DNA of 64,000 bases, from assembly GCA_038045385.1 (NCBI GenBank), contig JBBSYE010000001.1, positions 42,165-106,164 on the forward strand. Reading direction: 5' to 3'. The notes under the pieces were generated by a model, which saw only the letters and a program-made list of their open reading frames with translations, had not been told where the DNA came from and did not search any database. Each line of letters starts with the position of its first letter. The stretch's first letter is position 1. A program made the translations under genes and the position numbers. This DNA comes from Nanobdellota archaeon (GTDB lineage Archaea > Nanobdellota > Nanobdellia > Pacearchaeales > GW2011-AR1). Of this stretch, positions 22,244 to 63,087 are shown one piece after another.

Positions 22244-25057
22244 TCACTTCTCAATCTTCGCACAAAACTCGCAATTCTTCTCGGCCTTACAAAAAGCAAA
22301 ACCTTTCTTATAACATTCAAGAATTTCTTTAGCCGCCTCAATTATCTCCTTCCTAACTTCATGCAAAGAAAAAGCCATCCTATTGCTCCTAGAGTCTCTA
22401 GCAATACCCATGTTATCAATCTCATATTCCAACGGCTTCTCATTCTTAAAAACATCAAGAGTCACACGCTTCACATTCCCCAATCTTTGAGCCGCTAAAG
22501 CATAAAATCCTAACTGCCAATCTCTCTCACGTCCGTAAGGCACATGCGCTCCAGTTTTATAATCAATAATCTCAATCCAATCAAGATGGAAATCAATTCT
22601 ATCAGCATAACCTATAAAACGCAAACCATCAAGCGAAAGAAATAAAGACTGCTCGTTCTTAGACTCTTTATTATACTTATTTTTATTTCTCTCGAAAAAT
22701 ATTTTTAAAAGATGCTCTGCCTCTTTCAAATTAACTCCTCTCCACTCTGCCTTGAGGGCCATCTGTTCAGCAAGAGAAATAAATTGCCTATCGCTAGTAA
22801 AAAGCTCTTTAACGCCCTCTTCAATAATCAAATGCACAAAGCTACCAAGAGAGCGTTGCTCCCAAGTCACAATTTCTTCAGGCATATTAAACACATACTT
22901 ATACTCATATTTTTTTTGACAATCTTTGAACAAATTTAACGCCGAAGGAGAAAATGTAATGTCTTTCTTAACTTCAATCTTTTCAGTTACTCCAAAATCT
23001 GAGTCAATCTCCTCGGTTTTATCTAAATCTCTCAAGAAGGTAACATTCTCATTATTCTTAAAATCAATTTCATTCAGAAATTGACTAACCTCTAAATTCT
23101 TTGCACCATATTTCTGCGCATAAGTCAAATAAAGTCGCTTCTTAGTTCTAGTACAGGCCACGTAAAACAATCTCCTTTCTTCAGCAAGTTGTTGCTCCTC
23201 TTGCTCTTCCTCAGAAGTCAAGTTAAAATCAGCAGGAATAAGCTTATTTCCAGAAATTGTAGTAATAGGAAATTTACCTTGAACTAAATTAGCAATTATA
23301 ACAATCTCATATTCAAGCCCCTTAGTAGCATGGGCAGTCATTATTCTCACTCCCTCGCTTTTAGCTTTAGGCATCGCCAAGTCTAGCCCAAGATGCGTCC
23401 TAGCGTCCAAATGTGCAAGAAAGCTCTCTAGGTCGGCATACTCACGCTCACTAAATTCTTTAGCATATTCAGTAAAAGTTTGGATTATAGCATTCTCTCC
23501 ATCCTCTTCCCTTGAAACTCTTGAAGCAATATTTGCTATCAAAGCAGATAGCTGTTGGCCTTTTAATTTCTCCAATTCCCTCAACAAAACCTGCATAATC
23601 TCAAATTTTTTCTTAGATTCATTAGAAAAAATTTCAGGAACATTTTTCAGCAGATACAAAGACAAGCCCTCGGCCCCTTTGTGCTCTCGAACATATTTTC
23701 CAAACTTTCCTAACTCCTCTCCATCAATTCCTTGAATCTTAGCAAATCCCCACCAAGCGTTACTTCCCCCAGATTTAGCCTGAAATATTTTATCTAATAT
23801 CACACACAAATTCCTGATAAGCTCAATCCTAGTATGAGCAAGTAAAGATTGCCTTTTTGATGAGCTAAACACAATTCCTCTACCTTGCAACGCTTTCTTT
23901 AGCAAGTTTGCCTGATTATGTGTTCTAAAAAGCACACAAATTTCTCCTCCAAGAACACCGCTCTTAATTTCAGACTCAATAATCTCCACAATCTTTCTCA
24001 CTTCTTCTTTGCTATCAAGCAATTCAATCACATTAACTTTCTCGCCTTCGATTTCTCTCGCATTCAAAACTGAAAAGCATTCATCTTTATCTTTGTAATT
24101 ATTTTCAATAGCCTTATGTGCAACTTTCAATATTTTATTTGGAGAGCGATGTGACTTATCCAACTTAACAAATTCCGTTTTCCCATATCGCTTCTTAAAT
24201 TCATCAAAAGTTCCGCCATAAGCTCCTCTAAACTGATAAATAGACTGATTCAAATCTCCGACTATAGTAATATTCCCTCTAGGCGCAAGAGCAAATAGCA
24301 AGTCTAACTGTATCTTATTTGTGTCCTGAAATTCATCAACTATAAGATATCCAAAATTACTCGCCAAACTTGGCTCTTTCTCCAGTAATTTTAAAGCATA
24401 ATAATGCAAGTCAGAATAATCAAGCATATTATATTTTAACTTTATTTTTTCATAGCCCCTCCAGCTTTGCAAAAATCTTCTCTGTTGCACATACGTTCCA
24501 AGCCGCTCAATTTCTTTTTTAATCTCATCTTTTTCCTCTTTCTCCAATCTAGTTGAATGATGTCTCAAGGTAAGCTTCTCAAGTTCAGCTTCAGGATTAT
24601 CAGGAAAATCTTTTGCGCTATTTTTCAAAAAAGATTCATACTTTTCAAGCATAATAGAAGATTCTTTCAAAGCCCCAATCGCCTCAATATACTGGCTACA
24701 TCTAATTGGAATGGTCTTAAAATATTGATAAAGCATTATCATTCCATCTTCAGGAGTTATAATCTTAAACTTCTTTGATATTCCAATTTTCTCGCCATAC
24801 TCTCTTAGCAAATCCCCACACAATCCATGAAAAGTCCGCACAATAGGAACTGCTTGCTCGCCAACCATTCCAACTAGGCGCTTATGTAAAGAATCGACCG
24901 CCTCATTTGAAAAAGTAACACAAGCAATTCTTCCAGGTGAGAAGATCTTATTTTTCACAAGATATGTGACCTTATCCGAGATAGTTCGCGTTTTTCCCGT
25001 TCCCGCTCCTGCAAGTATCACACACGGCTTATCAACACAAGAAAGAAAGTCCTCCAT
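22244..25057 (-). CDS. UvrD-like SF1 helicase fused to C-terminal PD-(D/E)XK (RecB/Cas4-like, Cys-cluster) nuclease
   Basis: 937 aa. N-terminal Walker A VILAGAGTGKTRTI with UvrD motifs. The C-terminus has GSFVHLIIEE...IDYKTG and a four-Cys cluster CKAEKNCEFC, typical of an AddB/Cas4-type Fe-S nuclease. Confidence 0.75.
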   Translation of the reverse strand: MEDFLSCVDKPCVILAGAGTGKTRTISDKVTYLVKNKIFSPGRIACVTFSNEAVDSLHKRLVGMVGEQAVPIVRTFHGLCGDLLREYGEKIGISKKFKIITPEDGMIMLYQYFKTIPIRCSQYIEAIGALKESSIMLEKYESFLKNSAKDFPDNPEAELEKLTLRHHSTRLEKEEKDEIKKEIERLGTYVQQRRFLQSWRGYEKIKLKYNMLDYSDLHYYALKLLEKEPSLASNFGYLIVDEFQDTNKIQLDLLFALAPRGNITIVGDLNQSIYQFRGAYGGTFDEFKKRYGKTEFVKLDKSHRSPNKILKVAHKAIENNYKDKDECFSVLNAREIEGEKVNVIELLDSKEEVRKIVEIIESEIKSGVLGGEICVLFRTHNQANLLKKALQGRGIVFSSSKRQSLLAHTRIELIRNLCVILDKIFQAKSGGSNAWWGFAKIQGIDGEELGKFGKYVREHKGAEGLSLYLLKNVPEIFSNESKKKFEIMQVLLRELEKLKGQQLSALIANIASRVSREEDGENAIIQTFTEYAKEFSEREYADLESFLAHLDARTHLGLDLAMPKAKSEGVRIMTAHATKGLEYEIVIIANLVQGKFPITTISGNKLIPADFNLTSEEEQEEQQLAEERRLFYVACTRTKKRLYLTYAQKYGAKNLEVSQFLNEIDFKNNENVTFLRDLDKTEEIDSDFGVTEKIEVKKDITFSPSALNLFKDCQKKYEYKYVFNMPEEIVTWEQRSLGSFVHLIIEEGVKELFTSDRQFISLAEQMALKAEWRGVNLKEAEHLLKIFFERNKNKYNKESKNEQSLFLSLDGLRFIGYADRIDFHLDWIEIIDYKTGAHVPYGRERDWQLGFYALAAQRLGNVKRVTLDVFKNEKPLEYEIDNMGIARDSRSNRMAFSLHEVRKEIIEAAKEILECYKKGFAFCKAEKNCEFCAKIEK

Positions 25058-52268: not shown

Positions 52269-52382
52269 AGGTTTTATTTAAAGAATACGCCGGGATATAT
52301 ACATGGTGAAAAAAGTGTACGCTTTATAAAGAGGGATTTTCTCGCTTTGTTAGGTTGTAGAATTTGATAACTTTTCTTCTAT

Positions 52383-53948
52383 TTACATATAAAACATATA
52401 ATGCGTTTGAAGTGGAACGTTCCTATCTGCTTCGGATAAAATCTCTCCTACTTTCTTTGAAAATGCCAAAGTTATAGGCATTTCTGTACAAAACGCAGTA
52501 GTATTCCAATTTAATTTAGTTAAACCTAATATCTCTTCACAAATCTCTTTTATTTCTGAATCTCCATCATGATTAATTAAAACTGGTTGAGGAATACTAT
52601 TTCCTGGATAAGTTCTTAATCTTGGGATATACCCTATAGTGTACAATAGATGCTCTCCTTTATCCAGATTGATAAGCGTACCTCTTAACACAGGGTAGGA
52701 TCCTTTTCTCATAAATCTAATCCCCTTCCTTTTAGACAATGTAACGTAATCTCTTTTTGCAGTACCTATCGCTTTAGAGAATCCATTTTTTTCAGCTTTG
52801 GTAAATAAAGTAGATTTATGGACAACAACTCTCACTGGATCTCTTCCGGCCCTATTCTTATATCTTTCAATGGATTGAACTAATAACTCCTCCGCCTGTT
52901 TCTCAGATAAATGGGGTTCTTTGGTTTCTTCATCGACATAAACTTCAGTTCCTCTTAAAACCAACCCTTGTCCATCATGTGTAAAAACTTGAGCCATGGA
53001 AGTCTGAATATCCTGATTTGATGTTAATTTATCTCTATAAAAAGAAATTCCAACATAACAAGTATCGTCTCTAAGTTTTGCTAGCCTCCAAGGTTTTCCG
53101 TTTGCCTTGTAAAATAAAGCTGTAGAAAAATTCCAAGCAAAGGAAGATGGGTCCTGTTTTCTTTTACCAGCAGGATCATAATTTAGTATAACGTCTATAG
53201 TAGATTCTCTTAAGATTTGTATAGGCTTTGTTGGACTGATGCTCATCACTTTTCCTTTTAAAGCATTTCTAAAATCATAACCTTTTGGAATTTGCTGACT
53301 AGGAGATTTCATAGTTACACCCCACTCAGTTAGAAACATTTGGCTTTTCTTCTTTAGGTCATCTATCTTTTTCCCCAATTCAGACGTCTTGACTATTTTA
53401 GCTCCTCTCGTTCTAAGAGATATCCCGCAATATTCCTCTATCTCTTTCGGTAGACAGCAGATAATAACTTCCGGAGGATTATCATCCGCCATTATGTTTT
53501 TTATCTTAGACAGATATAATTCTACTGCTGAACCTATTCTTTCATTTACATCTATAATGTTTTTTATTTTTTCAATTTCATATTGTTGAACGGTCTCTTG
53601 CCAATTCTTAGCAATGTCAATAGAACAATTAAACTTTGTATCTTTAGACATGCCTGGATAAGGAGGATATAGCCACTTATTTGATTCTTTGTTTTCAATT
53701 GGTTTTTTTATCAGGTCAAGTATTTTTTTAACCTTCTCTATGGTGTTACTGTCTCCGATTATGCCTACAGAGACTTTGCTTAAAGAAACGCTTTCTGTTT
53801 CGTATCTATAGGGGCCATGGTATTTTAGTCCTAGTCGAGGGTCTTTTTCTTCCTTAAAGTCTCCAAAGACAAGATTACTCTCGTTTAGAAATTCTGAATC
53901 AAAAATCATTTTCTTCCTCCATGTGTTCGATTTCTTCACTATCTTCAA
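52383..53948 (-). CDS. Short prokaryotic Argonaute-like protein (MID-PIWI, predicted catalytically inactive)
   Basis: 521 aa. The block ALFYKANGKPWRLAKL..TCYVGISFYRDK matches the Ago KxGGxxW to GxDVxH segment, with the catalytic Asp replaced by Ser. VRVVVHKSTLF matches the RDG block, with RDG replaced by HKS. HLLYTIGYIPRLRTYPGNSIPQPVLINHD matches the PIWI C-terminal ...R.TRSVSIPAPAYYAH motif. Confidence 0.6.
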   Translation of the reverse strand: MKIVKKSNTWRKKMIFDSEFLNESNLVFGDFKEEKDPRLGLKYHGPYRYETESVSLSKVSVGIIGDSNTIEKVKKILDLIKKPIENKESNKWLYPPYPGMSKDTKFNCSIDIAKNWQETVQQYEIEKIKNIIDVNERIGSAVELYLSKIKNIMADDNPPEVIICCLPKEIEEYCGISLRTRGAKIVKTSELGKKIDDLKKKSQMFLTEWGVTMKSPSQQIPKGYDFRNALKGKVMSISPTKPIQILRESTIDVILNYDPAGKRKQDPSSFAWNFSTALFYKANGKPWRLAKLRDDTCYVGISFYRDKLTSNQDIQTSMAQVFTHDGQGLVLRGTEVYVDEETKEPHLSEKQAEELLVQSIERYKNRAGRDPVRVVVHKSTLFTKAEKNGFSKAIGTAKRDYVTLSKRKGIRFMRKGSYPVLRGTLINLDKGEHLLYTIGYIPRLRTYPGNSIPQPVLINHDGDSEIKEICEEILGLTKLNWNTTAFCTEMPITLAFSKKVGEILSEADRNVPLQTHYMFYM

Positions 53949-55353
53949 TTTCTAATCTAAACTCTGAAGATGGAATATCAAAAAGGATTCCTTTTGAAAC
54001 TTTAGTAGACGAAGGTTTCGAACTTATTTCTAAATAGTCTTGTACTTTGATATTTTCTCCCTCACCAAGTTGGTGTATCCAAAATAAAAGAGTATTAAGA
54101 TACATACTGTTGTATCTATTATAGGAAAGACGAGTTATTACTGCTCCCTCCTCCGGCCCAGAAACAACTCTTTTTCCATCATCAGTTATAACAAAAGTTG
54201 GGTTTATTTTAAGAAATAATCTCTTATTCAATATAATTGTACTCGCTTGAAAAGCCATATGACAATAAATATATCTTTTCAGTTGCTCAGCCCACATTCT
54301 ACTCGCCACTTGCCTATCTGATCGAACATATCTCCCAGCCCAACTTTCTTTTCTTTTTTCAGAATTAGATGGATAATAAAGTTTGTAGCCATCACGATGA
54401 TAATATAAACCTCTATTTATTGCTAAAAAAGTTATTTCTTTGTTAAGTAGTTCAATAATAATCTTTGATTTCTCTGGATCATCTAGCCAAGATTCAACTA
54501 GTTCTCTCGAAGCCGAGCTTGTAACTAATCCCGAATAAGGATTTTTACTATCTTGTAGATTCTCAAAAGTAACTATTTTTTTATTCCAACTTTTAAACTT
54601 TTTATAGAAGTCTGGTCTTATACTTCTCTCATACAAGTATTGTTTAATTGAGACATCATCTTCAAACTTACCCTCTCCTAGAAAAACGTATTTAGGTAAT
54701 TTTATAATCTCAAATAAATTACTAAAAATTTCTTCTTCTACATCATCAGGTTCTCCGCTCAAGACAGAAGTTTGATAATCAGTCTTTTCTATTCTCTTCT
54801 TAATTATTTCAATTTCGTAAGAAGTTGGATGTATGCTTTGAGTTCCCCTCCTATAAAATAATTCTCCTTTCTTGAATACTGATTTTGGTTTCCCATCTTT
54901 GTCATATTCACCATCTTTCTTTGGAACAAGCAGAGAACGAGAAGGCGGTATGTAAATATAAGCAAACCTCTTAGGAATGTTTCCTATCTCAATAATTTCT
55001 TCATGATAAAGTATCTCTAAAGGCTCATCAACATATGAATTGAATTTTTCTTGAAGAGTTGCTTGATCTACCTTATAATCTTCTCGGAGGCCTACAGGGA
55101 TAGGTTTTCGTTTTTCATCTTTCCAACCTATTAAAATCCAACCACCTCCATAATTACTGAAAGCTAGTATATCTTTTACTATCTCGGGAAAGTCAGATCC
55201 TTTTGAAACATCTATTACCAGCTTATAGTCAAGGTAAGGATTTTCAGATTTTTCTTTAAGATAATCTAATGCGTATTGCCCAAGTGGCGAAGACTCAACA
55301 TTGTCTATAACCACTTTCATTACAGGTTTTAAATTTACCTCTTGTTTTTCCAT
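53899..55353 (-). CDS. AlbA_2 (Schlafen-core-like) domain protein, putative pAgo-associated effector/partner
   Basis: 484 aa. N-terminus YLDYKLVIDVSKGSDFPEIVKDILAFSNYGGGWILIGWKDE matches the AlbA_2/Schlafen-box consensus (ExK...AFANT.GG.I.IGV.D). The gene overlaps the PIWI gene by 50 nt. Confidence 0.6.
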   Translation of the reverse strand: MEKQEVNLKPVMKVVIDNVESSPLGQYALDYLKEKSENPYLDYKLVIDVSKGSDFPEIVKDILAFSNYGGGWILIGWKDEKRKPIPVGLREDYKVDQATLQEKFNSYVDEPLEILYHEEIIEIGNIPKRFAYIYIPPSRSLLVPKKDGEYDKDGKPKSVFKKGELFYRRGTQSIHPTSYEIEIIKKRIEKTDYQTSVLSGEPDDVEEEIFSNLFEIIKLPKYVFLGEGKFEDDVSIKQYLYERSIRPDFYKKFKSWNKKIVTFENLQDSKNPYSGLVTSSASRELVESWLDDPEKSKIIIELLNKEITFLAINRGLYYHRDGYKLYYPSNSEKRKESWAGRYVRSDRQVASRMWAEQLKRYIYCHMAFQASTIILNKRLFLKINPTFVITDDGKRVVSGPEEGAVITRLSYNRYNSMYLNTLLFWIHQLGEGENIKVQDYLEISSKPSSTKVSKGILFDIPSSEFRLEIEDSEEIEHMEEENDF

Positions 55354-55402
55354 AGAAAGAGGATTAATTGGCTATGTATAAACTTTTCTAGCCTAGAGAA
55401 TA

Positions 55403-57304
55403 TTATTCAATTATATCTAGAAAATGAGATCTCTCGTTCTCTCTTCCCCAACCATTCTCATCGTAGTGTGTGATAACAAGAGAATTCTTTGCTCTGGAAA
55501 TAGCTACGTAAAATAATCTTAGTTCACTATCTCTCTTGTTGGTATCTAGCTCTTTAGTATAGAACGGTAAAGTTTTCTCATTACAGGAAATAAGAAAAAC
55601 GTGTTCCCATTCAAGTCCCTTCGCACTATGTATTGTACTGAGAATAACTTTGTCTTTTGTTTTGTCTTTTTTGTCTAGTTCAATCAGGCTATCCAAAAAA
55701 TCTTGTATCTGGTCCTTAGCTGGACCATATTCCTTAAAGAGTTCCTTTAAAACGTCAATGTTTTCTATTTTATCTTGTAATCTTCCAGGCTCCTCTCGAT
55801 ACTTATTTACAATTCTGGTCCTATAACCAAAGTCCTTTAGAAAAGATGAGATTGGATCTTCTTTAAAATTAATAATTAAGTCTTTTAATTTTTTAACTTG
55901 GTTTATTTTATCCTGGCTTAATTTAACTTCATCATAAAAGTCTAATGCCTCTATTAATGAACAGCCCCTTGTTAACGAGATATCTTCAAACTTTTTGACA
56001 GTTGTCTTACCTAAACCATCAAGTAAGGTAAAAATTCTTTCAAAATCAATAATAGAATGCGGATTGACCTTTAATTTTAGGAAAGCAGTAATGTCTTTTA
56101 TTTCCTCTCTTTCAAAGAAGTCTTTAGACTTAGCTAAATGACAAGGAATTTTATTCTTTTTCAACTCACGTTCAACGTCTTTTCCTATTCTATTGGTTCT
56201 AAACAAAACTGCTATTTGGTCTTTAGGAGTTTCCTTACTAATTAATTCTTTAATCTGATAGGCTATAAATTCAAGTTCTTCATCAAAATTAGAGAAAGAT
56301 TCAATTGCAACGTTCCCAGCATGGCTCTTAGTGCAGTTTAGTTGTTTGTCTATCTTAAACTTCATAGAGCCTATAACTTTATTGACAGAATCAATAATAT
56401 TCTTGCCAGAACGATAATTTTCTTTTAAGAAAATAGTCTTCTCGTTTTCGCTGAAATCAAAAACGAGTTGATTTGAAGATCCCCTCCATTCATAGATATT
56501 CTGACAATCGTCTCCAATAAGACATAGGTTGTTGTTCTTCAATAGATTAAGAATATTTTTTTGAACAACATTGAGATCCTGAGCTTCATCCACCATAATA
56601 GCCTTAAATCTTTTTGCATACTTTTCCCTTATTTCTTTATTCTTATCAAATAATTTATGAGTTAAGATAAGAATATCATCAAAGTCTATTAAATTTCTTT
56701 TTTTCAGTTCTTCCTCATATTTTTTATATACTTTGTTCACATATTTTCTTAAGTTTGGGTCTACTTTTATAATATCATCATCGAGAGCTTCTTCGACAAC
56801 ACCACCTTGAATATTGTCATCCAGGCTTGATTTTTCTGATAAGTTTTCAGCAAGAATACCTCGACTTTTGAATTTTCCAATCCAACTAACAAAATATTTC
56901 AGATTGTCTCCCTTGTAGTCTATATTCTCTCTAGTCATTATTTGTTTGACTATCTTCTTTTTATCAGCTTCATCATCGATTAAGGTAAATCCCTCGGCTA
57001 AGGAAGTAAATTTAACATTATCTCTTAGTATTCTAAGAAATAGTGAATGCATAGTCCCAATGTAAGGAGGTTCAGATCCCGTTCTTTCAACAATTTTCTT
57101 TACCATATCTTTAGCTGCCTTATTAGTGAATGTAGTCATCATTATTTCTCTCGGCTTGTATCCATGATTTTCAATCATATTTACATATCTCTCTACAATC
57201 GTTGTGGTTTTTCCGGTACCTGCACTTGCCATAATTAGGAGATTTCCGCTTACAAAATTAACTGCCTCTAATTGGTCTATATTGAGCTTTTTTACCTGAT
57301 TCAT
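55403..57304 (-). CDS. UvrD/Rep-like SF1 DNA helicase
   Basis: 633 aa. LLIMASAGTGKTTTIVERY (Walker A), FTNKAAKDM, VDEAQD, and the C-terminal YVAISRAK motif VI. Confidence 0.8.
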   Translation of the reverse strand: MNQVKKLNIDQLEAVNFVSGNLLIMASAGTGKTTTIVERYVNMIENHGYKPREIMMTTFTNKAAKDMVKKIVERTGSEPPYIGTMHSLFLRILRDNVKFTSLAEGFTLIDDEADKKKIVKQIMTRENIDYKGDNLKYFVSWIGKFKSRGILAENLSEKSSLDDNIQGGVVEEALDDDIIKVDPNLRKYVNKVYKKYEEELKKRNLIDFDDILILTHKLFDKNKEIREKYAKRFKAIMVDEAQDLNVVQKNILNLLKNNNLCLIGDDCQNIYEWRGSSNQLVFDFSENEKTIFLKENYRSGKNIIDSVNKVIGSMKFKIDKQLNCTKSHAGNVAIESFSNFDEELEFIAYQIKELISKETPKDQIAVLFRTNRIGKDVERELKKNKIPCHLAKSKDFFEREEIKDITAFLKLKVNPHSIIDFERIFTLLDGLGKTTVKKFEDISLTRGCSLIEALDFYDEVKLSQDKINQVKKLKDLIINFKEDPISSFLKDFGYRTRIVNKYREEPGRLQDKIENIDVLKELFKEYGPAKDQIQDFLDSLIELDKKDKTKDKVILSTIHSAKGLEWEHVFLISCNEKTLPFYTKELDTNKRDSELRLFYVAISRAKNSLVITHYDENGWGRENERSHFLDIIE

Positions 57305-57362
57305 ACTAGACTTTAGAGATTGTCTACTTTCTTAAGTTATTCTATCACTAATATTAAATCTC

Positions 57363-57638
57363 TTAATAATTGAACACAACTTGACTTTTTGAGAAAATAA
57401 CCCTGCTTCTTACCTTTACTTCTTTTCCGACTTTTGTCTTTGATATGAGGCCTAAATTTTCAAGCATCTTAACATAATCGGCCACTTTAGTGTAGGCTAG
57501 ATTCAGGTTAGACGCTAGCTCAGTAATACTGAGATCCTTATGTTGGGTGAGTTCAAGGACAGCGAATCGCATCATGTTTGACATGGCTTTTATTCTATCA
57601 TACACTTGAGGGTTCTTTAGGGTTGTTGAGGTTGTCAT
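57363..57638 (-). CDS. ArsR/winged-HTH family transcriptional regulator
   Basis: 91 aa. FAVLELTQHKDLSITELASNLNLAYTKVADYVKMLENLGLI is a wHTH motif. It is the first gene of the helicase-AlbA_2-PIWI operon. Confidence 0.6.
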   Translation of the reverse strand: MTTSTTLKNPQVYDRIKAMSNMMRFAVLELTQHKDLSITELASNLNLAYTKVADYVKMLENLGLISKTKVGKEVKVRSRVIFSKSQVVFNY

Positions 57639-57703
57639 TACACCAAATTTAGGGTAATTTTATATATTAACATAGTTCACCAAAAATGGTGTAATGTTCT
57701 CAC

Positions 57704-59124
57704 ATGGAAACCTCTACCATCCTCTATCCTCAAATTTACGATTATGATAACCTTATTTTAGCCTGGCAAAACGCCAAAAGAGGAAAGACAAAGCGAAGAT
57801 ATGTAAAACGATTTCAAAGAGACCTTAGAGAAAACTTGATTAAATTACAGGAAGAGCTTACTCATCAGACCTATCAACCGTGTGAACTAAAAACATTCAC
57901 GTTAAGAGACCCTAAAACAAGGAAAATATCAAAATCAGCCTTTAGAGATAGAGTTGTTCATCATGCGCTTTGTAATATTATCGTTTATACCTTTCAGAAG
58001 GGATTCATCTATGACTCGCACGCAAATCAAATAGGGAAAGGAACGCTCAAAGCTTTAGAGCGATTTGATGTTTTCAAAAGAAAGGTATCTAAGAACAATA
58101 CAAGAGAGGCTTATGTGTTAAAAGCAGATATTAAGCACTATTTTGAAGAAATTGACCATCAAATCCTTATAGGAATATTACGGAAGAAGATTAAAGATGA
58201 AAAAATTATCTGGCTCATAGAAAGAATCTTGTCAGTTAACCATAGGATAAAGGGCATGCCTTTGGGAAATTTAACAAGTCAGTTCTTTGCGAACCTATAT
58301 CTTAACGAATTAGATGTTTTTGTCAAGCACAAATTAAAGGCTAAATACTACATAAGATATGTGGATGATTTTGTTATTTTGCATGAATCAAAGGAGCAAC
58401 TAGGTAAGTGGAAGCAAGAGATTAATACTTTTTTAGATGAACGTTTGAAAATAGAACTACATCCAAGCAAATCAAATGTTTTAAGACTGAATAGTGGTAT
58501 AAACTTCTTAGGTTTCAGAGTTTTTTCTATCATAAACTTATAAGAAAAAGCAATTTAAGGAATTTTGAACGGAAATTCAATAATCTCAAAATATTATTTG
58601 ATGAAGAACTAATCGGGAGAGAAAAAGTACTAGAAGCCTTAGAAGGATGGCTCGCTTATTGTTCTCACGCAAATACGTACAAGTACCGAAAGTATCTCAT
58701 TAGAAACTTCAATACATCGTTTTCTCATGGAAACAAGCTCTTAGTTCACAATAAAAAGAATTATGCCAATTACATTAAGAGAGTTAAAGAAAGTGAATTA
58801 CAATTTTCAGTTCAAAAGACATTATTTCATTATAAGAAAGGTCTCAGAATAAAAGAAATCTCGGTCAAAGAAGGAATAAAAGAAGCAACAGTCTGGGGAC
58901 ATTTGGCTAATTTAATAGAACATAAACAACTTTCAGTGTGGGAAATTCTTCCACATAATAAAATCCATGCAATTATAAGAAAAATATATCGTAGAAAAGA
59001 AAGATTGCGAGATATCAAAAAGAGATTGCATGATAAATCAATAACATACGATGAAATTGCATGCGTGATGGCTAATATTAAATCAAAAAAGAAGTGGAAG
59101 AATAAGAGTCCTGGAAACAAGTGA
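57704..59124 (+). pseudogene. Group II intron-like reverse transcriptase/maturase, interrupted by a frameshift in a T6 run (~58523..58528)
   Basis: RT motifs 0-7 are present (NLILAWQNAKRGK; PKTRKISKSAFRDRVVHHAL; SHANQIGKG; YVLKADIKHYFEEIDH; MPLGNLTSQFFANLYL; RYVDDFVIL; LHPSKS; INFLGFRV). With T6 to T7 the frame continues ...FRVFFYHKLIRKSNL...EALEGWLAYCSHAN... (maturase X-like) to a stop at 59122..59124, about 472 aa. As sequenced the RT ORF stops at 58543. Confidence 0.65.
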
Positions 59125-59234
59125 GTTATTCCGAGCAAACGGCCATTGTCATTGTCAAGATTGTTCCTGCCGTTCGCATTCGACCTGTTCTCGAGCCTGT
59201 TGACAATCCACGCCCCAGAGCATAGCCCATTCAC
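59125..59234 (-). pseudogene. Fragment (~35 codons) of a paralog of gene 59964..60755
   Basis: 59131..59216 is about 80% identical to 60128..60213 at nucleotide level (DxDNGRLLGI vs DYDDGRLLGI). The fragment starts 7 nt after the RT stop. Confidence 0.5.
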
Positions 59235-59411
59235 TTATTACTCTTATCACCACCATTTCACGCATTAGGTGTTATGGCTGTATTTTATGACAATAAATTG
59301 CCACAGTGAACGAGCGTATAACCCAGCTTCTCATAGTTTCCCACGGTTGCCAGGACTTAGAATTTTAATAATAGGTGTATAAAAGGTTTATTGCAATATA
59401 TTAACTATTAT

Positions 59412-59939
59412 TCAATTGATAAAATCTAAGCTTGAATAAGTGTTTTTATTATCGCTATCGCACATGAGTAGTACTTTAGACTTCTTTTCTCCTCTTTTAA
59501 TTAAACACATAGCTCTATGATTTCCTAAAATAACTTCAAACAACTCCCCATATTTTCTAACGATTATTGGAATCTGAAATAATATTTCATCTACAACAGG
59601 ATATAATAAAGAAATTCTTTGAATAGATTCTTGACTATTCATTTTACTGGAATCTTTCAATTTTGTTCCTCTTTCTAAACCTCCATGAAAATCATCTAAA
59701 CATAACGAGTCTAAAGAAACTTCAATTAGTTGACAATACTTCTCGTTTAATCTGTCGAACCACATAAAGTCTCCCGAATTTAGTTTACTTCTAATCTGCT
59801 CTTTTGTAAGTGGAGAAACTCTCTTTTTTATATCTTTAATTTTCTTCTCAATTGAAGAATTTGATTTATTAGTAACGTGTTCTTGTTCATACAGTTTATC
59901 TATATAGAATAGTTTTTGTAGAATCTGTTTCTTATCCAT
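59412..59939 (-). CDS. Hypothetical protein
   Basis: 175-aa ORF. Confidence 0.4.
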   Translation of the reverse strand: MDKKQILQKLFYIDKLYEQEHVTNKSNSSIEKKIKDIKKRVSPLTKEQIRSKLNSGDFMWFDRLNEKYCQLIEVSLDSLCLDDFHGGLERGTKLKDSSKMNSQESIQRISLLYPVVDEILFQIPIIVRKYGELFEVILGNHRAMCLIKRGEKKSKVLLMCDSDNKNTYSSLDFIN

Positions 59940-59963
59940 TTATCAAACAGATAGAAGACTAAT

Positions 59964-60755
59964 TTAAAGTTTCTTTCTTAATGCAGCAAATGGTTTTAAT
60001 ACGTCAGGGTTTAGAACTCCTTCTAATCCTTTCATTGCACCGTCAAAAGCCTGTAAATCTGCCATAGTATATGCTTTTATGTTTGAAGCACCTTTTCCGG
60101 GCGCACTAAGCGCCTCCGGCGCTATACCGAGCAAACGGCCATCGTCATAGTCAAGATCGCCCCCGCCGAGCGCATACGACCCGTACTCGAGCCAGTCGAC
60201 AACCCACGCCCTCATCTTTGGAGCGTCGCCTGCTGAATCTGGGTAAACTCCCATTGCAGTATCATAACTAAATCTTTCCTTGCCTTCCGCAAAGATAAAA
60301 TCAGTATAATCATTAAGTAATGTCTGATCTCTAGCTAACACTTTCCATACAGGATGAGCTTTAACATCTTCTCTTGAAAGTGGAGTTTCTGTCTTTCCAA
60401 GTTTTCCTTTCTTGAATTCTTCTCCTTGTAAAGCATTGTAAACATCATCTGTTAAAGTTAAAGCACCATTACTTCTTGGACTTTCAGGAGTCATATCTCT
60501 TAAAGTTTGAGAATCAAGAACAATCTTTACTCTCCCATCTGGGTGATACACAACGGCATCTCCAGTATCGAAATAATTATCCATATAAGAAGTTTTAACG
60601 GCCTTATCAGAATTTCTAACATCAAGTCGTCTTTGCATCAATTGAGAAACATTCATAGGAACTCTGCCATCCGCTATCAATTTCGGCATTTGCTTTACAT
60701 TCTGGCCGTAAAATTCCTGATATACTTCTCTTGTTGCATTTAGCTTTAATCCCAT
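59964..60755 (-). CDS. Hypothetical protein (263 aa), GC-richer than surroundings
   Basis: Intact ORF with locally elevated GC (for example about 60.10-60.25 kb). It has a partial paralogous fragment at 59125..59234. Confidence 0.5.
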   Translation of the reverse strand: MGLKLNATREVYQEFYGQNVKQMPKLIADGRVPMNVSQLMQRRLDVRNSDKAVKTSYMDNYFDTGDAVVYHPDGRVKIVLDSQTLRDMTPESPRSNGALTLTDDVYNALQGEEFKKGKLGKTETPLSREDVKAHPVWKVLARDQTLLNDYTDFIFAEGKERFSYDTAMGVYPDSAGDAPKMRAWVVDWLEYGSYALGGGDLDYDDGRLLGIAPEALSAPGKGASNIKAYTMADLQAFDGAMKGLEGVLNPDVLKPFAALRKKL

Positions 60756-60810: not shown

Positions 60811-63087
60811 TTACAATACCTTAATTTTATTTAACACTTCTTCTGTATTACCAGTATGTGCTAAAAAGAAATGTAGCTTACCCTTACCTAGCTCAGCCCA
60901 CTTATTGGCAATCTCAACTTTATAGCCAGTATCTTCGTTGCTTATTCTATCTCCGCCCTTCCACTCGATAGCTAGAAAGTTGCCTCTACTCGTTATTGCT
61001 ATAAAATCAGGATAGAATTTATTTGGTCTCCATCCTTGTATATAAAACGGATCTTTCTTTTCTTTATTTCTTACCCAAAATTTGATATTTGGCAAGGCTT
61101 CTGAATCTAACCTTGAAATAAAGGCATGTTCTTCTTTGTTTAACTTTCCAATATCTTCATAAAAATTTCTCTTAAACTTTTCTCCGACTCTATCAGCAAT
61201 CATAACTTTATCTGAGAATTTCTCAAACTCTTTTATTTTAATCTTCTTATCTTTTATAGATTTGTCAAATTGTTTCTTTGCATACTCAATAAGTCTGTCT
61301 CGGATAATCTCATCTAATTTATCTTTAAAAATAAAACGATTAACTGATAGTTCCGATAAACTATATTTCTTAAGCTGATATTCAACTGCCTTGTCCAAAA
61401 ATTTAATCTTATCTCCTTGGTCAATCATGACAAACTTAAGTTTTCCGTCTAACCATGAAATAAGTTCTTTTTCAGAGAAATTCTTATCTAAATAGGTAAT
61501 ATTGAGAGTTGTCTGCCTTTCTTTTACCCATTCGTTTTCTTTATGTATATCTAAAAGAAGTCTGCCATCATTGTCATAATGAATCTTAAAATCAAATTGA
61601 GTGTCTTGCTTGGAAAGTTCAAAATCTTCCCCTATAAGGTCTGCAAACTCTAAAGGCTCATCTTCAAAAGCCATGATCGGGGCAAATAAGTCGTCTTTTA
61701 CAGTTTTTCCTACTTCGAACTCATATTTTGGATTTTTCTCTTGTGCATTGATTAAGTCATATCTGCTAAAGCCGTTTGTTTCTAATCCATCTATAATCTC
61801 ATTTGCTACTTCGTTGAAATTCTTACCTGTTGCAAATATATAGGAATTGTTTAGTTCAGGATTCTTTTTTTCTTTGGCATTAGGAAGCCTTACAATTCTA
61901 CCTATAATCTGCTCAACAGATATTTTAGATCCGATATTTGCTACTGATATTAAAATGTAGGCAAACGAGCAATCCCATCCTTCAGCCAAAGCATTAACTG
62001 TGATGATATAGTTTATTGGACATTTCTTACTGAATAAGTCTACTCCTTCTAACTGGTTTTGAGAAGAAGTTTTTATTGCAATTTCTTCGTCAGGAATCTT
62101 ATGTTCTTTCATTAAGAAATCTTTTATATGTTGAACTGTAACAACAGTAGTCTTATCACTTTCCTTTTCTTGTTGTGCTTGTAGGAGTGCAATAGGTCTA
62201 ATATATTCGCCCTTCTCTTTCTTCGCAATATCAGACAATTCTTTTCTCTTAAGTATTCCTCTAGTTACTGCTTGTTGCCATTGGGAAACGCTCTCTAAAA
62301 CTATTGGAATTTTAACCATCTTCTCTTCTTTTAATTCAACAGAGCTAGTCTTTACCAAAACATTACTTTCTTTTCTTGGAGTTGCAGTATATTCTATGAT
62401 AAAACAGGGGTTAAGGTCTTTCAAAAATTGAATAGATAAATCTGTTTTTGTTCTATGTCCTTCATCTATTACAATTAAAGGATTACTAATTCTTATGACA
62501 TTAGCCAAGGAATTAATCACAGTACCCGACTCGTCTTTCTCTAGTTTGCTATCCTCTGCTAGATTTTCAAAATGACTTATGAGTTCACCGTTTTCTTGAT
62601 AAACTTTATATTTATTCTGTAATTTCTTGTCTTTTCTAAAGGAATCAAGACTAGATACGATAATACAAAGATTATTTTCTACATCTTGCTTTCTTATTCT
62701 TAGAGATTCTTCATTAGAGAAAATTCTTATTTTATTATCAAAATATTCATCTAAGATTTGTCTATGAAAGTCTTTTTTATCATTAAGCTTTCTTAATGTT
62801 TGAGATTTAATCGCTTCAGAAGGAACAAACCATATTATTATTCCTCTTTCTAACTTATTTTCTAAGGAAATATCAATTATTTCTTTAATTGAATGACAAG
62901 CAACAAGAGTCTTACCGCCACCTGTTGGGATCTTAATACATACAAATGGTACATTCCCAAAGAACTCTTCATTATATTTCTCTGCCGCTTTTGAGATAAA
63001 GGCATGCTTTGCTCCAAACTTATTTAATTCCTTTAGATAATCTTTTAACTCTTGAATTGCTTTTTCTTGATATTTCTTTAGTTCCAT
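60811..63087 (-). CDS. res: Type III restriction enzyme Res-like subunit (SF2 helicase + C-terminal PD-(D/E)xK nuclease)
   Basis: 758 aa. Motif I KIPTGGGKTLVA, motif II IVIDEGHR, motif VI QIIGRIVRL. The C-terminus YPDFIAITSRGNFLAIEWKG carries a D...E.K nuclease motif. The start overlaps the mod stop (ATGA). Confidence 0.7.
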   Translation of the reverse strand: MELKKYQEKAIQELKDYLKELNKFGAKHAFISKAAEKYNEEFFGNVPFVCIKIPTGGGKTLVACHSIKEIIDISLENKLERGIIIWFVPSEAIKSQTLRKLNDKKDFHRQILDEYFDNKIRIFSNEESLRIRKQDVENNLCIIVSSLDSFRKDKKLQNKYKVYQENGELISHFENLAEDSKLEKDESGTVINSLANVIRISNPLIVIDEGHRTKTDLSIQFLKDLNPCFIIEYTATPRKESNVLVKTSSVELKEEKMVKIPIVLESVSQWQQAVTRGILKRKELSDIAKKEKGEYIRPIALLQAQQEKESDKTTVVTVQHIKDFLMKEHKIPDEEIAIKTSSQNQLEGVDLFSKKCPINYIITVNALAEGWDCSFAYILISVANIGSKISVEQIIGRIVRLPNAKEKKNPELNNSYIFATGKNFNEVANEIIDGLETNGFSRYDLINAQEKNPKYEFEVGKTVKDDLFAPIMAFEDEPLEFADLIGEDFELSKQDTQFDFKIHYDNDGRLLLDIHKENEWVKERQTTLNITYLDKNFSEKELISWLDGKLKFVMIDQGDKIKFLDKAVEYQLKKYSLSELSVNRFIFKDKLDEIIRDRLIEYAKKQFDKSIKDKKIKIKEFEKFSDKVMIADRVGEKFKRNFYEDIGKLNKEEHAFISRLDSEALPNIKFWVRNKEKKDPFYIQGWRPNKFYPDFIAITSRGNFLAIEWKGGDRISNEDTGYKVEIANKWAELGKGKLHFFLAHTGNTEEVLNKIKVL

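Follow-up and report, generated by a model that had tools for sequence, protein, structure and literature searches.

A Schlafen-APAZ protein paired with an inactive short Argonaute in a nanoarchaeal genome: a probable two-gene defence system

Short prokaryotic Argonaute (pAgo) systems are defined by the effector that an APAZ domain delivers, and versions with TIR, SIR2, DREN and HNH effectors have been solved. Here we describe a locus from a Nanobdellota archaeon (contig JBBSYE010000001.1, positions 42,165 to 106,164; this stretch of 64,000 nucleotides (nt) is referred to as the window) in which an inactive short pAgo is encoded directly after a protein that joins a Schlafen/AlbA_2 domain to APAZ (SLFN-APAZ). 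From the domain identities, the folds, the conservation of the active site, the obligatory pairing of the two genes, their co-evolution and their natural fusions, we consider it probable that the two proteins form an effector-APAZ short-pAgo defence system with a guide-triggered Schlafen RNase. The locus holds four open reading frames (ORFs) that are co-directional on the minus strand, at the coordinates already reported in a first-pass annotation of this DNA: those of a winged helix-turn-helix (wHTH) protein, a superfamily 1 (SF1) helicase, SLFN-APAZ and the pAgo (Table 1). The gaps, of which the annotation gave one (49 nt), are 58 nt between the wHTH and helicase genes and 49 nt between the helicase and SLFN-APAZ genes. 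The pAgo gene most likely starts at the ATG at 53909 rather than at the TTG at 53948, and the protein has 508 rather than 521 residues, because solved homologues align from that methionine, the NCBI call MEK6898584.1 is identical, and a GGAGG lies upstream. Given this start, the SLFN-APAZ and pAgo genes overlap not by the 50 nt first described, but by 11 nt (ATGATTTTTGA), and the overlap has the identical length in homologous loci. In NCBI the pAgo is labelled 'hypothetical protein' (from a Nanoarchaeota metagenome-assembled genome, MAG) and its partner 'ATP-binding protein'.

Table 1. Features of the locus, in coordinates of the window.
Feature	Coordinates	Strand	Details or basis
wHTH gene, 91 residues	57363-57638	minus	ORF list
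UvrD/PcrA-like SF1 helicase, 633 residues, all motifs intact	55403-57304	minus	
BRE/TATA-like element AGAAAAG-TTTATA	55377-55389	minus	read from sequence
SLFN-APAZ effector subunit, 484 residues (MEK6898585.1)	53899-55353	minus	
Schlafen/AlbA_2 nuclease domain (predicted), residues 12-192	54778-55320	minus	E37-x4-D42-x-K44, K60-D61, Schlafen box A64-F-S-N67-YGGG
APAZ domain, residues 203-455	53989-54747	minus	pAgo-binding scaffold, equivalent to N/L1/L2 of long Argonautes
Disordered acidic APAZ C-terminal tail, residues 460-484 (IPSSEFRLEIEDSEEIEHMEEENDF)	53902-53976	minus	pLDDT, charge
Short pAgo, MID-PIWI only, 508 residues, inactive PIWI (predicted; MEK6898584.1)	52383-53909	minus	
pAgo ORF in its longest form, 521 residues	52383-53948 (TTG start)	minus	
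Conserved 80-nt tail with T6 tract (52309-52314), likely terminator	52282-52361	minus	87.5% identical in L035/L036
Accessory block of ~5.0 kb: helicase, SLFN-APAZ and pAgo genes	52362-57362	no strand	blastn of L035/L036 against the window, junctions

The identification of the pAgo is secure from its sequence. Residues 17-521 of the longest ORF match positions 2-455 of the 455-position PADLOC model pAgo_I at 1.9e-153, and in a phmmer search against the PDB the best relatives are the Argonautes of SPARDA (NbaSPARDA 9jsb_A, 2e-69; XauSPARDA 9qbl_B, 3e-67; Eae/XauSPARDA about 2e-67), followed by those of SPARHA (AcaSPARHA 9om4_B, 9e-65) and SPARTA (BabSPARTA 8qlo_B, 1e-63; Bab/Crt/MapSPARTA 1e-63 to 4e-57), with the GsuSPARSA Argonaute (5.5e-29) the weakest of the solved relatives listed. 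By E-value, then, SPARDA/SPARHA (about 1e-65 to 1e-69) rank above SPARTA (about 1e-57 to 1e-63), and SPARTA above SPARSA. The Pfam Piwi and MID models, whose silence the first-pass annotation would have taken as a refutation, gave no match to the 521-residue ORF at E<=0.1; because the PADLOC and PDB matches are overwhelming, we read this blank as a limit of the models and not as a refutation. Solved short pAgos of 471-507 residues align with the whole length of the protein, Met1 through the C-terminal ...HYMFYM, and it comprises MID and PIWI but lacks the N and PAZ domains. In PIWI, VGISFY stands in place of GxDVxH (D to S) and VVVHKS in place of RDG (RDG to HKS); these replacements, already recognised in the annotation, align with equally inactive positions in the SPARDA, SPARHA and SPARTA Argonautes (two catalytic positions mapped), and PIWI is predicted to lack the catalytic DEDX tetrad and to be catalytically dead. 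Two stretches, F-R-x3-K...P-x-Q-I in MID and ...FYM at the C-terminus, fall in the alignment on the region that forms the 5'-phosphate pocket in the solved relatives. By analogy with these relatives, we infer that the window pAgo acts as a guide-loaded sensor subunit.

The partner protein carries the AlbA_2 domain assigned to it earlier (Pfam SLFN_AlbA_2, residues 37-175, E=2.1e-12, the sole Pfam match of the N-terminal domain). The annotation had seen no APAZ fusion in this protein, a view contradicted by its C-terminal half, which is a genuine APAZ: the PADLOC APAZ models (Aga_*-PNTD1-PNTD2) match residues 196-456 at 2.7e-25, and the HNH-APAZ chain of SPARHA matches residues 201-433 at 4.7e-11. 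The PADLOC Aga models align from residues 182-209 onward, that is, to the APAZ part only. The partner is a canonical effector-APAZ fusion that fits the standard short-pAgo design. Its AlphaFold model (mean pLDDT, the predicted local distance difference test score, 81.6) has two domains joined by a low-confidence linker (residues 193-202), and a structural fold comparison agrees with both the Schlafen and the APAZ assignment, placing the N-terminal domain in AlbA_2/Schlafen, with an alpha+beta fold like that of the Schlafen C-lobe. The effector domain is not TIR, SIR2, DREN (DUF4365) or HNH, and hence the system is not SPARTA, SPARSA, SPARDA or SPARHA.

Three motifs of the N-terminal domain, E37-NPYL-D42-Y-K44, K60-D61 and A64-F-S-N67-YGGG, are invariant across 30 diverse homologues, and E-x4-D-x-K is present in 113/113 full-length homologues. 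This signature corresponds to the E(x)4(D/E)xK and 'SAFAN' active site of RzAgo (the Runella zeae SLFN-pAgo) and human SLFN11; in RzAgo, target-DNA-triggered tRNA cleavage is abolished in the D32A mutant (10.64898/2026.05.29.728809). At the other end of the protein, 11 of the last 25 residues are acidic and one is basic, and pLDDT is below 50 over residues 456-484. The acidity of the tail is a family trait (mean net charge about -6.6 over the last 25 residues of 111 homologues), and, by analogy with the auto-inhibitory acidic tail of the CrtSPARTA APAZ (10.1101/2023.07.12.548734), it is a candidate auto-inhibitory nucleic-acid mimic.

Relatives of SLFN-APAZ are few: 174 were found at E<=1e-5 among 90%-identity clusters, and in a set of 1.84 billion representatives, clustering at 50% identity gives only about 50 groups of full-length proteins, the weaker matches covering the APAZ half only. 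A genome scan yielded 23 good loci, in MAGs of Methanophagales, Methanoperedens, Micrarchaeota, Woesearchaeota, Nitrososphaeria, Bathyarchaeia, Thermoplasmata, Archaeoglobus and Thorarchaeota and in one MAG labelled as gammaproteobacterial, and the family is almost wholly archaeal. In every locus with enough downstream DNA (21/21), a short pAgo gene directly follows the SLFN-APAZ gene, with matching strand and order; the same adjacency is seen in L026, L028, L037 and L039 (L numbers denote loci), which brings the total to about 25 loci across archaeal phyla. The two proteins also co-evolve, their identities to the window pair being correlated at r=0.95 over 21 loci. Moreover, they occur as natural in-frame SLFN-APAZ-MID-PIWI fusions: P0272 (981 residues, complete), P0263 (913 residues) and P0082 (744 residues). 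Over 506 residues, P0272 shares 45% identity with the window pAgo, and it joins the domains without a GHKL.

When the neighbours lying within ±8 kb were clustered all against all in 22 loci, no third conserved gene emerged; the next-best families (for example, anaerobic ribonucleotide reductase) are confined to 3-4 closely related loci of the Methanoperedens type. In the analysis of Koopal et al. (2022), no gene other than that of the APAZ protein was specifically associated with short pAgos (PMC9097488), which agrees with the lone conservation of the SLFN-APAZ/pAgo pair. The functional unit is of two genes, SLFN-APAZ and pAgo, and not of four.

Two observations concern the members of this family. 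The SLFN-APAZ-MID-PIWI fusions are analogous to the fused SIR2-APAZ-pAgo of clade S1A, and we met no mention of them in the literature consulted. The only 'bacterial' locus, L009 (CATQGX010000003.1, labelled as a Gammaproteobacteria MAG), carries in its upstream promoter region a motif that almost repeats that of the Nitrosotenuis locus L010, TTACTTATAT...AAAGGAAT/AAAGAAAT-ATG, and may be a mis-binned thaumarchaeal contig.

Among known systems, SPARDA (DREN-APAZ) and SPARHA (HNH-APAZ) of clade S2B share with the window an effector-APAZ gene upstream of an overlapping gene for an inactive MID-PIWI protein, as well as a motif in the region of the MID pocket; by analogy, a common logic may be expected, in which guide RNA and target DNA lead to oligomerisation, collateral nuclease activity and abortive infection. 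They differ in that their effectors are PD-(D/E)xK (DREN) or HNH, whereas that of the window is Schlafen/AlbA_2, with RNA (tRNA) and not DNA as the likely substrate; they also differ from the SLFN-APAZ family in that the latter is almost entirely archaeal, and the kinship with S2B is one of E-value ranking. SPARTA (TIR-APAZ, clade S2A) has the heterodimer architecture that we propose for the window pair, and is alike in the end-to-end alignment of its Argonaute to the window pAgo, and in the acidic, disordered APAZ C-tail; by contrast, its effector is a TIR NADase, and that of the window a nuclease-type Schlafen domain.

Other systems resemble the window in their Schlafen domain. RzAgo combines an inactive Argonaute sensor with a nuclease like the Schlafen C-lobe that carries E(x)4(D/E)xK and a Schlafen box, and it has been shown experimentally that guide-RNA-directed DNA recognition licenses its Schlafen domain to cleave tRNA, with abortive infection (10.64898/2026.05.29.728809). 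However, RzAgo is one polypeptide of about 1,100 residues with PAZ and a tetramerising GHKL ATPase, belongs to the long-B pAgos and is mostly bacterial, whereas in the window the Argonaute is short, the Schlafen domain is joined to APAZ in a protein of its own, and an ATPase domain is absent, which sets the system apart from the RzAgo type. Mammalian group III Schlafens (SLFN5/11/13/14) share the acidic active-site motif, and a common antiviral tRNase role is plausible, but they have a fused SF1 helicase/ATPase, while the window has the C-lobe-like half only and, in its lineage, an SF1 helicase gene next door, of the UvrD/PcrA type, separate, and unlinked in about 25 other loci. Cash (CRISPR-associated Schlafen; Csx15-Schlafen) is likewise a prokaryotic Schlafen tRNase that serves as effector of nucleic-acid-guided immunity (PMC13462974); it is activated by cA4 (cyclic tetra-adenylate) from type III CRISPR, in place of the Argonaute/APAZ scaffold of the window system.

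The configuration had been put forward as undescribed, a claim that we do not uphold, as the class is already catalogued: Schlafen/Alba-APAZ is among the listed short-pAgo effector classes (10.1101/2023.07.12.548734) and appears in Fig. 1e of 10.64898/2026.05.29.728809, the Schlafen-APAZ class is 'Cluster 6' of another survey (PMC13462974), Schlafen boxes have been noted in archaeal Ago neighbourhoods (PMC5995195), and a SIR2+Schlafen-APAZ group is listed as og_40 (PMC6299218). We found no experimental study of SLFN-APAZ; a full-text search for SLFN-APAZ or Schlafen-APAZ gave one preprint only. The window system is a further member of a catalogued, apparently uncharacterised Schlafen sub-class of short pAgo systems, of which the locus offers a clean, intact archaeal example.

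We propose the following mechanism for the two-gene system. The SLFN-APAZ and pAgo genes would be translationally coupled through their overlap and probably transcribed from their own promoter, and their products would form a heterodimer in which APAZ supplies the N-terminal lobe that the Argonaute lacks; the co-evolution and the natural fusions lend this heterodimer indirect support. The pAgo would take up a short guide with a 5'-phosphate (all characterised relatives use RNA), and before activation the duplex channel may be closed by the acidic APAZ tail. Guide and complementary invader DNA together would expel the tail and shift the sensor loops of PIWI (a 'beta-relay'), upon which the complex would oligomerise and juxtapose its Schlafen domains into a composite active nuclease; SPARTA, SPARDA and SPARHA form oligomers or filaments after guide-RNA/target-DNA recognition. 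The nuclease would cut RNA, most likely tRNA, and the ensuing halt of translation would bring about abortive infection or block the establishment of plasmids. A defence role is supported by the genes that flank the pair elsewhere, namely restriction-modification (RM), GmrSD, HsdS, AbiEii and integrase genes; Eco57I-type methylases, type III Res and OLD-like ATPases are also found there. SLFN-APAZ/pAgo is a candidate programmable, target-DNA-triggered RNase. In it Argonaute and Schlafen, both ancient modules of immunity, would be connected in split form and without an ATPase.

Several points weigh against this proposal. The AlbA_2 fold is found in DNA-binding, non-catalytic proteins too. The chemistry of the guide, the target, the oligomerisation, the substrate and the phenotype are all proposed by analogy with the characterised systems. 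The base-specific N179 of XauAgo aligns to a D in the window pAgo, and the guide 5'-base preference of the latter may differ from that of XauAgo. Further, tetramerisation of the Schlafen domains of RzAgo depends on its GHKL ATPase, and an SF1 ATPase is part of mammalian SLFNs, while the SLFN-APAZ protein has neither a GHKL nor an SF1 ATPase domain (Pfam gave no GHKL/HATPase match in this protein or in the pAgo). This raises the question whether oligomerisation of APAZ/pAgo suffices to bring Schlafen domains together as an active nuclease; the other route, of low probability, is by way of the neighbouring helicase in this lineage. Compared with the sister contigs L035 and L036, helicase and pair come and go together in a single block, and they are adjacent also in L040; the two may have a local functional link.

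Of the alternatives, one retains the two-gene system and has the Schlafen/AlbA_2 domain act on DNA, either as a collateral DNase in the manner of DREN or HNH or as a mere nucleic-acid-binding module. It is true that the nearest solved relatives of the pAgo, SPARDA and SPARHA, have DNase effectors, and that older surveys annotate AlbA_2 as DNA-binding (PMC6299218). On the other hand, the acidic triad found in 113 of 113 members, together with the invariant Schlafen box, argues for catalysis over mere nucleic-acid binding, and the prokaryotic Schlafen nucleases that we found characterised (RzAgo, Cash and an Ig-fused Schlafen) cut tRNA. We regard an action on DNA as unlikely, and a Schlafen RNase as probable.

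A second alternative, the model of the first-pass annotation, is a system of three or four genes, in which the helicase unwinds invader DNA, makes guides or supplies the ATPase, and the wHTH protein acts as regulator. The helicase was correctly recognised as UvrD-like: the protein is a complete UvrD/PcrA-type SF1 helicase (Pfam UvrD-helicase 2e-67, UvrD_C 4e-57), with more than 3700 homologues at E<=1e-30, of which the best 120 are 51-84% identical and mostly from Nanoarchaeota or Woesearchaeota. In favour of the model, the genes are co-directional and closely spaced, helicases have been reported as enriched in pAgo neighbourhoods generally (PMC6299218), and the characterised Schlafen nucleases depend on an ATPase (GHKL in RzAgo, SF1 in mammals). 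Moreover, the helicase, SLFN-APAZ and pAgo genes form a single presence/absence block of ~5 kb relative to L035 and L036, and the helicase/SLFN-APAZ junction is kept in L040, a close relative from an independent sample, in which SLFN-APAZ is 83% identical, the upstream gene ends with the same helicase C-terminus (94% identity over 70 residues), and the first 30 nt of the spacer, including AGAAAAGTTTATAC, are the same as in the window.

Against this, the adjacency of helicase and pair is confined to the window and L040, and is seen in 0 of about 25 other loci, four of them from the same helicase-rich DPANN lineages: no UvrD or wHTH relative was detected by tblastn within 8-10 kb of the pair in L001-L029, nor by Pfam annotation in L037 and L039 (the latter has an SNF2 helicase downstream). 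Conversely, the four nearest full-length orthologues of the helicase (73-84% identical) are each found in a different setting, in two cases next to type I RM genes, and none has the pAgo pair nearby. The nucleotide similarity to two orthologues covers only 57338-55401, that is, the helicase gene and its 34-nt leader, and ends exactly at the helicase stop codon; a BRE/TATA-like element lies inside the 49-nt gap that follows. The synteny between the window and L040 is what common ancestry would predict, given how closely the two are related. The adjacency is genuine and not a mis-assembly, yet confined to one narrow sub-lineage, and the helicase is a lineage-specific neighbour and not a defining component. 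The split Schlafen nuclease-plus-helicase architecture put forward in the annotation is speculative, as a stable association with a UvrD helicase was not found beyond the window and L040. Since the three genes share the 5-kb block and the junction is kept in L040, one may still suppose that the helicase was recruited as a third component in this Nanoarchaeota sub-lineage, giving an ATPase or unwinding function; we think this quite improbable, as we do the three- or four-gene model itself. If true, it would be an independent split reinvention of Schlafen-plus-helicase immunity, coupled to an Argonaute sensor.

The fourth gene was rightly called a wHTH gene (Pfam HVO_A0114 1e-7, HTH_45, HTH_24), but its place in the operon is not sustained by comparison with the closest relatives. 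In the sister contigs L035 and L036 (87% nucleotide identity), the wHTH gene is followed by 6 nt and then by window positions 52361-52282, the helicase and pAgo genes being absent; the block was inserted between the stop codon of the wHTH gene and the conserved 3' tail of that gene, and is polymorphic in its presence. L034 is 88.7% identical across a diversity-generating retroelement (DGR) and the wHTH gene, and continues after the wHTH stop with a third, unrelated sequence; there the wHTH gene pairs with the reverse transcriptase (RT) gene of the DGR. Because three close relatives hold at this position the 5-kb block, nothing, and an unrelated sequence, the site after the wHTH stop is a cargo hot spot. 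No convincing target-site duplications or repeats were seen at the block ends in the junction sequences (window 57363/52362; L034:9277-9381; L035:302-386; L036). The wHTH gene lies outside the block, persists unchanged in L035 and L036 without it and is retained in L034, and we reject it as regulator of the system; it is a pre-existing flank gene and not part of the pAgo module. The pair alone being conserved in about 25 loci, the four-gene 'operon' is unsuitable for propagation in annotation as the definition of a system.

A third possibility, that the helicase belongs with a divergent RT (as a DRT-like 'RT-associated helicase') or is the GajB of Gabija, with the pAgo pair as an unrelated neighbour, draws on PADLOC matches (RTasHel 2.6e-80; GajB models up to 1e-89) and on an RT gene 400 nt upstream of the helicase on the opposite strand, but we reject it as very improbable, since that RT belongs to a DGR with a textbook pair of template repeat (TR) and variable repeat (VR) and sits in the conserved flank outside the block (in L034 this flank runs through the wHTH gene into unrelated sequence, not into the helicase leader), no GajA or other OLD-type partner (Gabija pairs a GajB-like helicase with a GajA OLD/TOPRIM nuclease) was present among the neighbours scanned, and the PADLOC matches stem from a general resemblance to UvrD (the NCBIfam models PcrA, Rep and UvrD each match at 1e-95 to 1e-110, PcrA at 371 bits, under its cutoff).

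The signals that flank the two-gene module were read by eye from the junctions, a sigma-70 scan not being used since the host is archaeal. The TATA of the element resembling a transcription factor B recognition element (BRE) and TATA box starts 29 nt upstream of the SLFN-APAZ ATG, and the element is kept in L040 while the bases after it diverge. Many other loci have comparable A/T-rich TATA-like boxes 25-35 nt before the SLFN-APAZ gene, in DNA that is itself AT-rich. These sequences are suggestive of a putative promoter of the module's own, giving a leaderless or short-leader mRNA. At the other end, the conserved 80-nt tail is likely, from its sequence, to be a terminator, now positioned downstream of the pAgo gene.

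Helicase orthologues elsewhere offer further observations. In L030, the gene of an 82%-identical orthologue comes after those of a small GIY-YIG protein and of a distant wHTH protein, which shares 35% identity with that of the window, within an island of type I RM and GmrSD genes; in L031, the orthologue adjoins HsdR and two CYTH proteins. This DPANN helicase seems often to lie at the edges of defence islands. The window also encodes a second UvrD-family protein (22244-25057, minus strand, 937 residues) that is AddA/RecB-like, with a C-terminal PD-(D/E)XK nuclease, and lies near an eIF2-gamma gene; it is only 24% identical to the 633-residue helicase.

The DGR adjoins the block at 57704-60755, with its RT at 57704-59124 (RT ORF 57704-58543), its TR at about 59125-59215 (~93 nt) and its VR at about 60121-60211, near the C-terminus of the target protein, which is encoded on the minus strand by an ORF of 263 residues (59964-60755). 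TR and VR differ only at adenines of the template strand (in the copy at 59127, T on the plus strand is A on the minus strand), and we assign the element as a DGR because these differences bear the classic signature of adenine mutagenesis. L034 has two such target genes of 263 residues. Compared with the L034 orthologue of 473 residues (RVT_1 and HTH_40), the window RT is split by a frameshift near 58504-58525, in the stretch 58504-58543, residues 1-274 and 268-473 of the orthologue aligning to it in two frames; the RT ORF of 279 residues is thus a truncated pseudogene, or else the assembly is in error. The wHTH and RT genes are separated by a divergent promoter region of 65 nt with a perfect palindrome, CACCA-TTTT-TGGTG (57678-57691), and a further TTGGTG closer to the wHTH start, and the palindrome may be the wHTH operator. 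Beyond the DGR lies a helicase like the Res subunit of type III restriction enzymes (60811-63087, with an upstream extent to about 63617; PADLOC REase_III 2.8e-93), the syntenic gene of L034 being preceded by an N6_N4 DNA methylase. Together, the pAgo block, the DGR and the Res-like helicase make a defence and variability island of this end of the window.

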